A DNA stretch of 64,000 bases, from assembly GCF_003334815.1 (NCBI RefSeq), contig NZ_QOWO01000004.1; one strand, written 5' to 3'. Under the pieces are notes generated by a model, which saw only the letters and a program-made list of their open reading frames with translations, did no database searches and had not been told where the DNA came from. The stretch is from Escherichia coli (GTDB taxonomy: Bacteria; Pseudomonadota; Gammaproteobacteria; Enterobacterales; Enterobacteriaceae). This document shows positions 19,547-27,143 of the stretch, piece by piece. Each line of letters begins with the position of its first letter. Position 1 is the first letter of the stretch. The position numbers and the translations under genes are program-made.

Positions 19547-20635
19547 ATGAATAACCGGGAAAAGGAGATCCTTGCAATTTTACGGCGTAACCCGCTGATT
19601 CAGCAGAACGAAATTGCGGACATGCTGCAAATCAGCCGTTCGCGCGTTGCGGCGCATATTATGGATTTAATGCGCAAAGGCCGGATTAAAGGCAAAGGTT
19701 ACATTCTCACCGAGCAGGAATACTGCGTAGTGGTGGGGACAATCAATATGGATATTCGCGGGATGGCGGATATCCGTTACCCGCAATCGGCTTCTCATCC
19801 CGGTACAATTCATTGCTCAGCGGGCGGCGTGGGACGCAACATCGCCCACAATCTGGCGCTGTTAGGCCGTGACGTCCATTTGCTTTCAGTGATTGGCGAT
19901 GACTTTTATGGCGAAATGCTCCTGGAAGAAACGCGCCGTGCCGGCGTGAATGTCTCCGGCTGCGTTCGTTTGCATGGTCAAAGCACATCGACGTATCTGG
20001 CAATTGCCAATCGAGACGATCAAACCGTGCTGGCGATTAACGATACCCATCTGCTGGAACAGTTGACACCGCAACTACTGAACGGGTCGCGCGATTTACT
20101 TCGTCATGCGGGCGTGGTACTGGCTGATTGCAACCTGACAGCCGAGGCGCTGGAATGGGTCTTTACCCTCGCTGATGAAATCCCGGTGTTTGTCGATACC
20201 GTTTCAGAATTCAAAGCGGGCAAAATCAAACACTGGCTGGCGCATATTCACACCCTGAAACCCACTTTACCGGAGCTGGAAATTTTATGGGGACAGGCGA
20301 TCACCAGCGATGCTGACCGTAATACCGCAGTGAATGCATTGCATCAGCAAGGTGTTCAGCAACTGTTTGTTTATTTGCCCGATGAGTCAGTTTATTGCAG
20401 CGAAAAGGATGGAGAACAATTTTTGCTGACCGCGCCAGCGCATACGACAGTAGACAGTTTTGGTGCTGACGATGGTTTTATGGCGGGCCTGGTATATAGC
20501 TTTCTTGAAGGATACAGTTTCCGCGACAGCGCCCGTTTTGCGGTAGCCTGCGCGGCAATTTCGCGCGCCAGCGGCAGCTTAAACAACCCTACCCTGTCTG
20601 CCGATAACGCGCTTTCATTAGTGCCAATGGTGTAA
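19547..20635 (+). CDS. yeiI: pfkB-family sugar/nucleoside kinase with N-terminal HTH domain
   Basis: 362-aa ORF 3 bp after nfo; ribokinase-like GAGD motif near C-terminus; paralogous to psuK. Confidence 0.9.
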   Translation: MNNREKEILAILRRNPLIQQNEIADMLQISRSRVAAHIMDLMRKGRIKGKGYILTEQEYCVVVGTINMDIRGMADIRYPQSASHPGTIHCSAGGVGRNIAHNLALLGRDVHLLSVIGDDFYGEMLLEETRRAGVNVSGCVRLHGQSTSTYLAIANRDDQTVLAINDTHLLEQLTPQLLNGSRDLLRHAGVVLADCNLTAEALEWVFTLADEIPVFVDTVSEFKAGKIKHWLAHIHTLKPTLPELEILWGQAITSDADRNTAVNALHQQGVQQLFVYLPDESVYCSEKDGEQFLLTAPAHTTVDSFGADDGFMAGLVYSFLEGYSFRDSARFAVACAAISRASGSLNNPTLSADNALSLVPMV

Positions 20636-20642
20636 CAATGTT

Positions 20643-20735
20643 GCCGGATGCGACGCTTAACGCGTCTTATCCGGCCTACAAATCAGGCAATTTCAGCAAG
20701 TAAATGTAGGCCTGATAAGCTTGCGCATCAGGCAA
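20643..20735. repeat. REP pair between convergent yeiI and nupX
   Basis: gccggatgcgacgcttaacgcgtcttatccggcctaca plus an inverted degenerate copy gtaggcctgataagcttgcgcatcaggca. Confidence 0.7.
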
Positions 20736-20741
20736 TGACAC

Positions 20742-23931: not shown

Positions 23932-25182
23932 TTACGCCAGACCAATAAAGAACCCGGCAATAGTCGCACTCATCAGGTTGGAAAGCGTTGCTGCTGCCAG
24001 CGCCCGTAAACCAAGCTGGGCGATTTCCGGCGCGCGTTTTGGCGAAATAGCCGAAAATGCGCCAACGACAACACCGATAGAACCAAAGTTAGCAAAACCA
24101 CAAAGCGCAAAGGAGATAATCGCAATGGTTTTCACTTCCAGCGTGCCGCCTGTTTGCAGGTATGGGGAGAAACTCAGGTAAGCGACGAATTCGTTAATCG
24201 CCAGTTTCTGCCCAATCAGGCTACCCGCAAGATTGGCATCACTCCAGTCCACACCCATGATCCACGCCAGCGGTGCCAGCACATAGCCAAAAATACTTTC
24301 CAGAGAGGCATTGGCGAAACCAAACCAGCCGCCAATTCCGCCGATAATGCCGTTGATCAGCGCAATAATTGCGACAAACGCCATTACCACCGTCGCCACA
24401 CCAGCGGCGATTTTTAGCCCGGTCATCGCACCGCTCGCCGCCGCTTCGATAAAGCTTTTTGGCGGCGTTTCGCTGAACGACAGATTTTCAAATGTGACCT
24501 GCGAAGGCTCGGTTGCCGGGCTAAGAATACGTGCAAACAAAATCCCGCCAGGGATCGCCATCAGCGATGCCGCTAACAGGTAGTCAATTGGTACGCCCAT
24601 TCCGGCATAACCAATCATCATCGAACCAGCAATGGACGCCATCCCGCTACAAATTGCGGTAAACAACTCGTTGCGATTCATGCGATCGATAAACGGTTTA
24701 ACGATCGCCGGGATCTCATTTTGCCCGAGGAAAATAGTAGTAACCGCAACAAAAGATTCGATTTTGCTGATGTTGAGGGCTTTCTGGAAAATGCTGCCAA
24801 GGATGCGAATCAGCAGCCCCATCACGCCAATGTAGTACAGCAGACTGATGAGCGCAGTAACGAAAATAATCGCCGGAAGTACGCGAAAGGCGAAGATAAA
24901 ACCCGCACCGTCAAACAGGACATCCATTTTCGGCCCAACCAGCGAACCAAAAATGAAGGCGCTACCGGCATCACTGTAAGACATCACTTTATGAACGCCT
25001 AATGCCGCCTGTTCTACTGCCCATTTTCCCGGTGGGAAGTAGAGCATGATGCCACCAATAGCGATTTGCAGCAGCAGTGCGGCTCCAACCGTGCGCAAAC
25101 TGATGCTCTTTTTATTCACTGACAACAGAAATGCTATTGCCAGTAACACCACCATCCCCACAACACTTCTCATTATATCCAT
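23932..25182 (-). CDS. psuT: NupC-family transporter (putative pseudouridine transporter)
   Basis: 416-aa ORF; near-identical along its length to nupX; first gene direction of the psu cluster. Confidence 0.9.
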   Translation of the reverse strand: MDIMRSVVGMVVLLAIAFLLSVNKKSISLRTVGAALLLQIAIGGIMLYFPPGKWAVEQAALGVHKVMSYSDAGSAFIFGSLVGPKMDVLFDGAGFIFAFRVLPAIIFVTALISLLYYIGVMGLLIRILGSIFQKALNISKIESFVAVTTIFLGQNEIPAIVKPFIDRMNRNELFTAICSGMASIAGSMMIGYAGMGVPIDYLLAASLMAIPGGILFARILSPATEPSQVTFENLSFSETPPKSFIEAAASGAMTGLKIAAGVATVVMAFVAIIALINGIIGGIGGWFGFANASLESIFGYVLAPLAWIMGVDWSDANLAGSLIGQKLAINEFVAYLSFSPYLQTGGTLEVKTIAIISFALCGFANFGSIGVVVGAFSAISPKRAPEIAQLGLRALAAATLSNLMSATIAGFFIGLA

Positions 25183-25275
25183 AATGATTTTCCCTTCATG
25201 CCGGTAAACCCGGCGTCAGCGCCAGGTTTTGGTATGCTTGATGAGTACGGGCGACGGCTTTCTGCCCGTCAGAAA

Positions 25276-26214
25276 TTAACCCGCGAGACGCTGATATTCT
25301 TTGGCAATTTCGCTCGCCAGAATGGCGTTGTTGAACACCAGCTGGATGTTGGATTTCAGGCTGTCACCGCCGGTCAGTTCAGCAACGCGCGCCAGCAGGA
25401 ATGGCGTACTTTCTTTACCAATGACTCCCTGAGCTTCAGCTTCAGCTACCGCCTGATCGATCGCCGCATTGATAGTGTGTTCCGGCATAGCAAACTGTTC
25501 CGGGATCGGGTTCGCTACCACGAGGCCACCGTTCAGACCGCTTTGCCATTTCACCGCCATTGCACGGGCAATTTCGCTGGCGCTGTCGAGACGAATGCTG
25601 ACGTCAAACGGGCTGGTGCGGCAGAAAAACGCAGGCAGCGCTTTAGTCTGATAGCCAATTAACGGCACACCGAAGGTTTCTAAATACTCAGTGGTTAATC
25701 CTAAATCGAGAATAGATTTCGCCCCGGCACAAACAACGGTGACATTAGTATTTGCCAGTTCTTGCAAATCGGCAGAAATATCGAAGGTATGTTCCGCCCC
25801 GCGATGCACACCACCAATTCCCCCGGTGGCAAATACTTTAATTCCGGCAAGCGCCGCAATAATCATCGTTGAAGCCACAGTGGTTGCGCCATTTTTTCCG
25901 GCGGCAACAACAAAAGGTAAATCGCGACGACTAACTTTGGTCACGTTATGCCCTTCACGACCCAGTAATTCAATTTCTTCTTTGCTTAACCCCACTTTCA
26001 TCACGCCGCCAATAATGGCGATCGTGGCAGGTACAGCGCCCTGTTTACGAATAGTTTCTTCAACTTCAATTGCGGTCTGGGCATTTTGTGGGAACGGCAT
26101 CCCGTGAGAAATAATGGTCGATTCCAGCGCCACAACCGGTTTTTTGTTTTTTAAAGCGTCCTGCACTTCCGGGGAAATTTGTAATAATTCAGGGGAAATT
26201 TTTAATTCAGACAT
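25276..26214 (-). CDS. psuG: Pseudouridine-5'-phosphate glycosidase
   Basis: 312-aa ORF recognised as PsuG; overlaps psuK stop by 13 bp. Confidence 0.92.
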   Translation of the reverse strand: MSELKISPELLQISPEVQDALKNKKPVVALESTIISHGMPFPQNAQTAIEVEETIRKQGAVPATIAIIGGVMKVGLSKEEIELLGREGHNVTKVSRRDLPFVVAAGKNGATTVASTMIIAALAGIKVFATGGIGGVHRGAEHTFDISADLQELANTNVTVVCAGAKSILDLGLTTEYLETFGVPLIGYQTKALPAFFCRTSPFDVSIRLDSASEIARAMAVKWQSGLNGGLVVANPIPEQFAMPEHTINAAIDQAVAEAEAQGVIGKESTPFLLARVAELTGGDSLKSNIQLVFNNAILASEIAKEYQRLAG

Positions 26215-27143
26215 TCTGCGTTCTCCACTAACGATATAACGTTGGCAATCGATAAATCGGGGTTATTGGTGTATTCACAGGAGAGCGCCATTGACGAACA
26301 TCCCTGTGCGAAACGAACAGATTCGGCAAACGGCATTCCGTCTACCCAACACGAAGCAAGTCCCGCCATCATGGCATCGCCCGCTCCGGTAACATTAATA
26401 ACATTGGTTTTGATCGGCGCAGACCAGCCACTTTCACCGCTGATATCGCTGTAATAAACGCCGTCGCCGCCCATGCTCAATACCAGTCGGTTCAGGCCAT
26501 GTTGATGGAACCAGGCAGCAACTTTTGCCACATCTTCACGCCCTGACAGCGCAATCCCACTCAGGGTTTCCGCTTCAAGGCGGTTTGGCTTGAGAGTGTG
26601 GATCTGATTTAGACGGTCGCGCACTTTGACACATTTCCATGCCGAAACCGGATCGACAAATACGGGTACGTTGGCGGCATTATCCAGAATCCATGCCAGT
26701 GCCTCTTCACTGATATTACAGTCCGCGACAATGACCTTTGCCCTCTGAATAAATTCACCGTGCTGTGCGAGATATTCAGCTGTAATAGCGTTGCTAATAT
26801 TCATGTCATTTATAGCAACCAGCATTTCACCGGTATTATCGAGTAATGATAAATAACTCGACGTATTTTCTCCCGGCACAATCAGGCATTTATCGACATA
26901 AACGCCAGATTGATTGGTTTGCGTTAGCAGCGATTGACCATAAAAATCACTGCCTACGGCGCTCAGTAGCCAGGCTTTGTTACCCAGCAACGCCAGGTTT
27001 TGTGCAATATTGCGCCCTACTCCACCAGGCGTAAATTTTATTTTACCTGGATTTGAATCCGCATAATTTAATGATTCATGTGAATATCCGGCGACATCAA
27101 TATTCGCCGAACCTATAATTACGACATAATCCTTTTCGCGCAT
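26202..27143 (-). CDS. psuK: Pseudouridine kinase (pfkB family)
   Basis: 313-aa ORF with ribokinase-family motifs (GGVGRN, GAGDA). Confidence 0.9.
   Translation of the reverse strand: MREKDYVVIIGSANIDVAGYSHESLNYADSNPGKIKFTPGGVGRNIAQNLALLGNKAWLLSAVGSDFYGQSLLTQTNQSGVYVDKCLIVPGENTSSYLSLLDNTGEMLVAINDMNISNAITAEYLAQHGEFIQRAKVIVADCNISEEALAWILDNAANVPVFVDPVSAWKCVKVRDRLNQIHTLKPNRLEAETLSGIALSGREDVAKVAAWFHQHGLNRLVLSMGGDGVYYSDISGESGWSAPIKTNVINVTGAGDAMMAGLASCWVDGMPFAESVRFAQGCSSMALSCEYTNNPDLSIANVISLVENAECLN

Follow-up and report, generated by a model that had tools for sequence, protein, structure and literature searches.

The current analysis reveals that nupX and psuT, two diverged transporter genes of Escherichia coli that lie in the same orientation on either side of the rihB and yeiL genes, recombine with each other in natural populations to yield intact hybrid genes, with the exact loss of 3,190 bp that includes both rihB and yeiL. 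Of 5,426 complete E. coli genomes, five carry hybrids of this kind, each with its own crossover site, and sequence has also been exchanged between the 3' ends of the two genes without any deletion. The locus was studied in a 64,000-nt stretch of E. coli DNA (the window, to whose positions the coordinates refer), which is a 100% match to E. coli chromosomes and in which the region of interest spans 19547-27143. Its genes, named after the RefSeq annotation of identical genomes, are arranged in the order nfo(+)-yeiI(+)-nupX(-)-rihB(-)-yeiL(+)-psuT(-)-psuG(-)-psuK(-)-fruA(-).

The products of nupX (20742-21992, minus strand) and psuT (23932-25182, minus strand; the transporter gene of the pseudouridine operon) are both 416 aa long and align without gaps, with 366 of 416 residues identical (88%). 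Each passes the curated NCBIfam cut-off of 442 bits for the NupC/NupG CNT family model TIGR00804 (500.5 bits for NupX and 517.6 bits for PsuT) and covers profile positions 1-401 of 401. The two genes are direct repeats whose starts are 3,190 bp apart. The original prediction for this DNA, which had been made from the sequence alone, was thus accurate in describing two largely identical transporters of 416 aa encoded in the same orientation about 3.2 kb apart. Its description of long near-identical DNA was overstated, as only 984 of 1,251 nucleotides (78.7%) are identical. The longest perfect tracts measure 38, 23, 20, 20, and 17 bp, and the pairwise alignment therefore does contain one tract above 25 bp, in which psuT 23996-24033 pairs with nupX 20806-20843; the 23-bp tract pairs psuT 24236-24258 with nupX 21046-21068. 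Third codon positions account for 199 of the 267 differences, and the nonsynonymous and synonymous divergences (dN and dS) are 0.077 and 1.40, respectively, values that point to strong purifying selection on both genes. Since E. coli and Citrobacter psuT orthologs differ by a dS of 1.23-1.30, the split between nupX and psuT is at least as old as the split between these genera. A previous study of transport by the same CNT paralogs places NupX and PsuT in one clade apart from NupC, lists only NupC and PsuT homologs in C. freundii, and reports weak transport of uridine and cytidine by NupX (YeiJ) and no uptake of uridine, cytidine, or xanthosine by PsuT (YeiM) (PMC11241209). The history of the locus, its recombination, and natural hybrids were not the subject of that work.

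Whole-region megablast could not list rare variants of the locus directly, and a synthetic junction query was used instead. This query joined 1 kb from the yeiI side to 1 kb from the psuG side, and the two halves were merged into a single match only when separated by a gap of 1.5 kb or less. In five genomes, the yeiI and psuG flanks lie exactly 1,251 bp apart, and all five loci consist of yeiI, one intact 1,251-nt coding sequence of the NupC/NupG family, psuG, and psuK, which makes each 3,190 bp shorter than the corresponding locus of the window. The strains are EH10-18-47 (Laos; L005), E203449 (Mali; L006), SY019 (South Korea; L007), CFSAN004176 (USA; L008), and 11PC (from mink, China; L009). 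When compared at the 267 diagnostic sites of the window, each of the single transporter genes is of the psuT type at its 5' end and of the nupX type at its 3' end, with a single switch whose position differs in all five. The strains come from five countries, their flanking sequences differ by 2-4%, and the different crossover sites indicate that the five events were independent. Each hybrid is a singleton within the collection, for an overall frequency of about 0.1% of genomes. As rihB-yeiL is present in 5,419 of the 5,426 genomes and the seven lacking it comprise the five hybrids plus strains CUPS04 and ET734, recombination between the paralogs is the main route to complete rihB-yeiL loss. 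The survey for chimeras and deletions accordingly bears out the suggestion that the two transporter genes serve as recombination substrates for the removal of the intervening genes.

All five crossovers map to the 3' portion of the paralogs, between gene positions 757 and 1251 (20742-21236 in nupX and 23932-24426 in psuT, both on the minus strand). For two of the hybrids, a closely matched parent allowed the recombinant to be modeled in full. With the window as parent, the EH10-18-47 gene matches the modeled recombinant with 1 mismatch and its crossover falls within the 23-bp tract at gene positions 925-947 (21046-21068/24236-24258), while the SY019 gene matches a recombinant modeled from strain 118UI with 0 mismatches and a crossover in another 23-bp tract at positions 757-779. 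For three of the hybrids, the diagnostic sites of the window yielded intervals that were too narrow, because nupX and psuT alleles are polymorphic, and these crossovers were re-mapped using lineage-matched parents and fixed differences. Considering fixed nupX/psuT differences only, CFSAN004176 switches between positions 964 and 987, and E203449 and 11PC switch after position 1049, with imperfect parents placing their switches near 1084-1088 and 1231-1247, respectively; the three hybrids lacking matched parents are bounded to intervals of 5-17 bp when such imperfect parents are used. The chance that a random breakpoint falls within a perfect tract of at least 20 bp is 8%, or about 5-8% per breakpoint for tracts such as those observed.

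Exchange between the two genes is not limited to crossovers. Among six nupX and 11 psuT alleles, a set from which the divergent psuT of strain SE15 was left out, fixed differences number 159 across positions 1-1049, whereas the 202 nt from 1050 to 1251 contain none and have 10 sites that are polymorphic in both genes. Three 3'-end cassettes, composed of the last ~12 nt and the adjoining downstream sequence, are spread over both genes across strains, one of which is the 3' end of E. albertii psuT. A discrete conversion tract is found in L017, an Escherichia genome labelled E. coli SCPM-O-B-8794 that shares 92-94% identity with the window across all genes and therefore belongs to a cryptic clade. 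Its nupX (7001-8251 of that locus) carries a psuT-type tract of ~170 bp at positions of about 1050-1215, including a 137-bp run identical to its own psuT (3800-5050), such that the two genes are 95% identical over the last 202 nt vs. 77.8% over positions 1-1049. This conversion allele is absent at 95% identity or above among the complete E. coli genomes. Taken together, the lack of fixed differences, the shared cassettes, and the L017 tract demonstrate interlocus gene conversion between nupX and psuT, with non-crossover exchange clustering toward the 3' ends of the genes, where the crossovers also fall.

Based upon these features, a relatively simple scheme can be proposed. Although the two genes are only ~79% identical, their short perfect tracts still permit rare ectopic recombination in register. 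A crossover leaves a psuT-5'::nupX-3' hybrid inside the psu operon next to psuG (25276-26214, minus strand; pseudouridine-5'-phosphate glycosidase) and removes precisely the 5' part of nupX, rihB, yeiL, and the 3' part of psuT, whereas exchange without crossover homogenizes the last ~200 nt of both genes. The genes lost are rihB (22092-23033, minus strand), encoding a ribosylpyrimidine nucleosidase, and yeiL (23163-23861, plus strand), encoding a CRP/FNR-type regulator and transcribed divergently from rihB. As expected for deletion between direct repeats, the paralogs share one orientation, the hybrids are in register, and exactly one repeat period of 3,190 bp is missing. Furthermore, both events having matched parents occurred within 23-bp tracts. 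The in-register hybrids, the exact period loss, and the location of crossovers in the longer tracts show that the exchange was guided by homology.

It is worth considering whether the hybrids could have been created in silico, since assembly is known to collapse repeats at times and no hybrid occurs more than once in the collection. We regard this as extremely improbable. Paralogs that are 79% identical and share no perfect tract longer than 38 bp are too diverged to collapse, the five genomes come from separate projects and countries with breakpoints that differ, the reading frames are intact, and two of the hybrids match modeled recombinants of related strains with 0-1 mismatches. The possibility that the five loci are ancestral sites that never contained the additional genes was likewise rejected, as their transporter genes join alleles of psuT and nupX from E. 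coli, with the same 0-1 mismatches. As for the enzymology, both RecA-dependent homeologous recombination and RecA-independent processes must be weighed. Exchange mediated by RecA requires a minimal processing segment and is counteracted by mismatch repair; the work of Shen and Huang in 1986 reportedly placed this segment at roughly 23-27 bp for RecBCD/RecA recombination. The crossover tracts of 13-23 bp are at or below this size, which could be taken to suggest that the hybrids arose by template switching or slipped misalignment at short tracts during replication. The absence of the reciprocal duplication product from the 5,426 genomes, in which it was sought with a second synthetic query spanning its junction (yeiL-REP-psuT3'::nupX5'-rihB), would fit with this scenario as well, although tandem duplications are unstable, making the missing product uninformative. 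However, the repeats are 3.2 kb apart and, according to what is said to have been found by Lovett and co-workers, RecA-independent events fall steeply with the distance between repeats. Conversion tracts of about 170 bp, such as that of L017, also favor a heteroduplex-based pathway. Template switching is therefore a possibility to be taken seriously, but we consider it the less probable source of the hybrids.

The second principal question concerns how the locus acquired two transporter genes. The original prediction was correct in assigning YeiI and PsuK to the PfkB family, and had proposed an old segmental duplication of a kinase-transporter module that produced yeiI-nupX and psuK-(psuG)-psuT around rihB-yeiL. 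YeiI (19547-20635, plus strand) contains PF00294 at residues 58-348 (3e-68) preceded by an extra N-terminal winged helix-turn-helix domain, while PsuK (26202-27143, minus strand; pseudouridine kinase) is a 313-aa protein composed of the PfkB domain only. YeiI scores 812.9 bits on the equivalog model NF007416 (cut-off 561) and PsuK scores 713.8 bits on NF007355 (cut-off 540); their scores on each other's model, 256 and 260 bits, are under cut-off, indicating that the two kinases belong to distinct PfkB subfamilies. They share 39% identity over 307 aa. Examination of other enterobacteria, taken from a scan of one genome per species, is informative in this regard. In E. albertii, Citrobacter sp. 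FP75, C. werkmanii, Enterobacter asburiae, and Leclercia adecarboxylata, fruA-psuK-psuG-psuT is convergent with yeiI-nfo-yeiH, and a single PsuT-type transporter is encoded (88-98% identical to PsuT and 85-89% to NupX). The genes rihB, yeiL, and nupX are absent from the psu/yeiI locus in all five. As these relatives have both kinases and one transporter, the kinase paralogy predates the second transporter and is independent of it, and yeiI is an ancient paralog of psuK that was not part of the transporter duplication. Conversely, Superficieibacter electus encodes a yeiL-rihB-nupX unit with none of yeiH, nfo, yeiI, psuG, psuK, or fruA within 7 kb, and its rihB-nupX spacer carries the same leader motif that precedes both E. 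coli transporter genes (see below). It is also relevant that the 3' end of O157/SE15-type nupX, together with its downstream repetitive extragenic palindromic (REP) element, is nearly identical to the psuT 3' end and REP that abut yeiI in E. albertii.

From these comparisons, E. coli most likely gained yeiL-rihB-nupX as a block. The ancestral enterobacterial locus would have consisted of psuK-psuG-psuT convergent with yeiI, in which a single transporter gene accompanied two PfkB kinase genes of ancient divergence. The block would have entered between psuT and yeiI in the lineage of E. coli and the cryptic clades, probably by recombination within the transporter 3' end, such that the resident 3' end and its REP stayed beside yeiI. 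Presumably, the hybrid-forming deletions of today thus recreate the ancestral gene order. Duplication of a complete kinase-transporter module is very difficult to reconcile with the data, despite the fact that both gene pairs are truly homologous and located on either side of rihB-yeiL. The two pairs have discordant divergence (39% vs. 88% amino acid identity) and do not share a relative order or orientation, as yeiI is on the strand opposite to nupX and convergent with it, whereas psuK is the first gene of the co-directional psuKGT operon with psuG between psuK and psuT. In addition, YeiI has an extra winged helix-turn-helix domain and five genomes from four other genera, as grouped in our comparison, have both kinases and one transporter, rather than one of each. 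A more serious alternative is that the psuT unit was duplicated in tandem in situ, from leader to REP, with rihB-yeiL later inserted between the copies and the extra copy then lost repeatedly from E. albertii, Citrobacter, Enterobacter, and Leclercia, possibly by the same paralog recombination. The homology unit indeed begins exactly at the psuG stop codon and leader and ends at the REP, the deletion process is demonstrably active today, and a dS of about 1.4 permits an age beyond the genus splits. Nonetheless, we find this scenario unlikely. It would require at least four independent and precise losses, yet the single transporter genes of these relatives exhibit no 5'/3' switch in similarity and no chimerism. 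A separate origin or transfer would also be needed to account for the yeiL-rihB-nupX module at another locus in Superficieibacter, which makes it less parsimonious than one block gain.

Considered as a whole, an explanation combining old paralogs, a block gain, homology-guided hybrid deletions, and gene conversion is in our view very probably correct. Several points do weigh against it. Just two of the five crossovers were mapped with well-matched parents, the exact sites in E203449 and 11PC depend upon polymorphic sites because there are no fixed differences after position 1049, and the longest tract of 38 bp was used by none of the five hybrids. The grouping of NupX with the Superficieibacter transporter is weak (88.2% vs. 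86.8% amino acid identity, no nucleotide signal, and a neighbor-joining tree without support values), and the matches listed are a sample of the taxonomic distribution of the yeiL-rihB-nupX block rather than a complete account of it.

The homology between the two transporter units extends beyond their coding sequences. At the 5' edge, it begins with a 28-nt leader starting at the psuG stop codon, of which the copies upstream of nupX (22018-22045, minus strand) and psuT (25249-25276, minus strand, extending 1 nt into the psuG stop codon) are 96% identical. Both contain the 19-nt core GGGCAG-N7-GTCGCCC (GGGCAGAAAGCCGTCGCCC; 22018-22036 and 25249-25267, minus strand), which can form a small 8-bp hairpin with an A bulge. 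Thirteen positions of the core are invariant in 10 leaders from six genera, both in those that follow psuG and in those that follow rihB. Covariation analysis of the hairpin found two compensatory pairs, a result equaled by 44-47 of 500 shuffles, and a scan of 19000-28000 with Rfam found no family covering the leader, only sub-threshold REP-related matches. The psuG-psuT intergenic leader (25183-25275, minus strand) also has a 41-nt segment that is absent from the E. coli nupX leader and carries a G+C-rich, terminator-like hairpin at about 25206-25226 (minus strand; CCUGGCGCUGACGCCGGG-UUU, also written CCUGGCGCUGACGCCGGGUUU). This hairpin is kept in E. albertii, Citrobacter, Enterobacter, and Leclercia, and may attenuate or terminate transcription between psuG and psuT. 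On the other side of the locus, rihB is located upstream of nupX on the same strand and the two probably form one operon. Their 106-nt spacer has a folding z of -3.5 and includes, past the rihB stop codon and ahead of the nupX leader element, a strong hairpin at 22046-22079 (minus strand; AGCCGGGCCGGUAUCGCAAGAUGCAGGCCUGGCU). A further candidate regulatory sequence is located in the psuK-fruA spacer upstream of psuK, where an 18-nt direct repeat, TTTAAACATGTG(T/C)TCATA, occurs twice in tandem (27211-27246) and may be an operator; this spacer is 47-67% identical between SE15 and the window.

At its 3' edge, the homology ends with the REP elements, which are recognized as extragenic imperfect palindromes of about 35-40 nt with the tail CTTATC(C/A)GGCCTAC and many copies. 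The tail motif TTATCMGGYCTAC occurs eight times in the window vs. 0.13 expected, and three of these copies are directly 3' of the transporter genes, in agreement with the earlier placement of a REP at the end of each. An inverted pair follows nupX (20641-20735, comprising 20641-20689 and about 20700-20735, with tails at 20667-20679 and 20706-20718), and a single element follows psuT (23883-23931, tail at 23909-23921), which shares 86% identity across 49 nt with the distal member of the nupX pair. Folding yields hairpins in both regions (z = -4.6 and -2.5), and these coincide with sub-threshold matches to the REP-derived Rfam family naRNA4. Depending on the strain, nupX is followed by one REP or two, with a single REP in the 55-nt intergenic region of O157-type strains. 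Thus, canonical REPs adjoin the ends of both genes as expected of REP palindromes and the bacterial interspersed mosaic elements (BIMEs) they compose, but the mapped crossovers are inside the coding sequences and not in the REPs, which only set the 3' limit of homology. Elsewhere in the window, REP clusters of alternating orientation that resemble BIMEs are located at 4402-4530 (three copies) and 57865-57925 (two copies).

Natural variation at the locus is by no means restricted to hybrids. About 993 of the 5,426 genomes (18%) lack the body of nupX, including SE15-like strains. In SE15 and strain HH45, the same internal deletion of 1,137 bp (window 20790-21926) has spared 66 nt at the 5' end of the gene and about 48 nt at its 3' end, with a junction at which TCAGTAA abuts CCTGATG and 3 nt of microhomology. 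The deletion flanks of these two strains (SE15, L002 3138-3404; HH45, L097 2396-2662) differ at 15 of 267 positions, and the same junction in such diverged flanks suggests an old nupX deletion allele that has spread by recombination. Insertion sequences have also contributed, as nupX, rihB, and psuK are frequently affected by IS1 insertions and by deletions bounded by IS1 (L013, L014, L015, and L016). ET734 has an IS1-bounded deletion from the 5' part of nupX through yeiL and TOK-001 has one from the 5' part of nupX through rihB, while 2017-19-1CC has IS1 both in rihB and at the psuG-psuK junction and 1008S13 has it in nupX. An internal stop codon interrupts nupX in PD007, and in JNE23-001 the gene is annotated 18 nt shorter. 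A 5.8-kb deletion in CUPS04 (window 20453-26246; junction between 3953 and 3954 of L003) removes nupX, rihB, yeiL, psuT, and psuG and leaves a truncated yeiI fused with the psuK 3' end. Recombination between the kinase paralogs was rejected as its cause, as yeiI and psuK have opposite orientations and share 39% identity, which makes this an illegitimate deletion. Each query from the locus additionally matched six places on plasmid-typed records in the E. coli genome collection, which could be F-prime-like elements or misassigned replicons.

A different layer of variation is evident from the comparison of SE15 with the window, in which yeiI and psuK are about 80-81% identical at the nucleotide level and psuT and psuG about 89%, vs. 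96-99% for nfo, rihB, yeiL, and fruA. The divergent segments correspond to 19500-20600 (yeiI) and 23726-27664 (psuT-psuG-psuK and the psuK-fruA spacer), as compared among L002, L020, and L017. The SE15 alleles are 91-92% identical to those of E. albertii, the normal distance between these species, and the window-type alleles are 92-93% identical to those of cryptic-clade L017, which is likewise a normal distance for that strain. It follows that two deep haplotypes exist at yeiI and psuKGT, and they may derive from ancient polymorphism or from replacement by horizontal transfer. One could speculate that the entire yeiI-psuK region is anciently dimorphic, with the block gain, nupX loss, and exchange between the paralogs all belonging to a long-running and possibly selected diversification of nucleoside and pseudouridine uptake, in which the hybrids would be functional transporters of altered specificity. 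At present, we hold this broader view to be doubtful.

Neither the genes of this locus, nor their paralogy, nor recombination of this type is new, and the basic view of the locus is unchanged. Exchange between tandem paralogs is familiar from the Lepore delta/beta-globin fusions and from tufA/tufB conversion in Salmonella. As in those systems, diverged tandem paralogs exchange in register at nupX/psuT to create a 5'-A::3'-B fusion with deletion of the intervening DNA, while conversion homogenizes them locally. Unlike in those systems, the reciprocal "anti-Lepore" duplication was not found in the 5,426 genomes, and conversion is confined to the ~200 nt of the 3' end rather than encompassing the whole gene. 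Parallels also exist in E. coli evolution experiments, where paralog deletions generated the chimeras manB/cpsG, in the long-term evolution experiment (LTEE), and icd/icdC, upon e14 excision (bioRxiv 10.64898/2026.06.14.732165). There too, paralogs in the same orientation recurrently and independently gave rise to one in-frame hybrid with loss of the intervening DNA. However, those events took place in laboratory populations, where one arose by site-specific excision of a prophage and the other removed 23 kb, whereas the nupX/psuT hybrids are from natural isolates, lost 3.19 kb, involve partners that are about 79% identical, have a frequency of roughly 0.1%, and show no sign of selection. The nupX/psuT pair is not mentioned in that report, and among publications on these genes (nupX/psuT and yeiJ/yeiM/yeiK/yeiL), we found no report of hybrids or of nupX deletion.

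What the current analysis adds is a clean natural case of hybrid gene formation at about 79% identity, with five independent events whose crossover tracts were mapped and which can be counted against a total of 5,426 genomes. As such, it bears directly upon the question of how common these chimeras are in natural bacterial populations, which was raised by the authors of the experimental study (bioRxiv 10.64898/2026.06.14.732165). It also corrects the proposed history of the locus, with the gain of a block beside an ancestral psuKGT/yeiI locus most likely taking the place of a module duplication. For studies of nucleoside uptake, the results indicate that about 18% of E. coli strains are without nupX and that rihB-yeiL is dispensable, while the natural PsuT/NupX hybrids provide ready-made material for mapping the specificity of these transporters.

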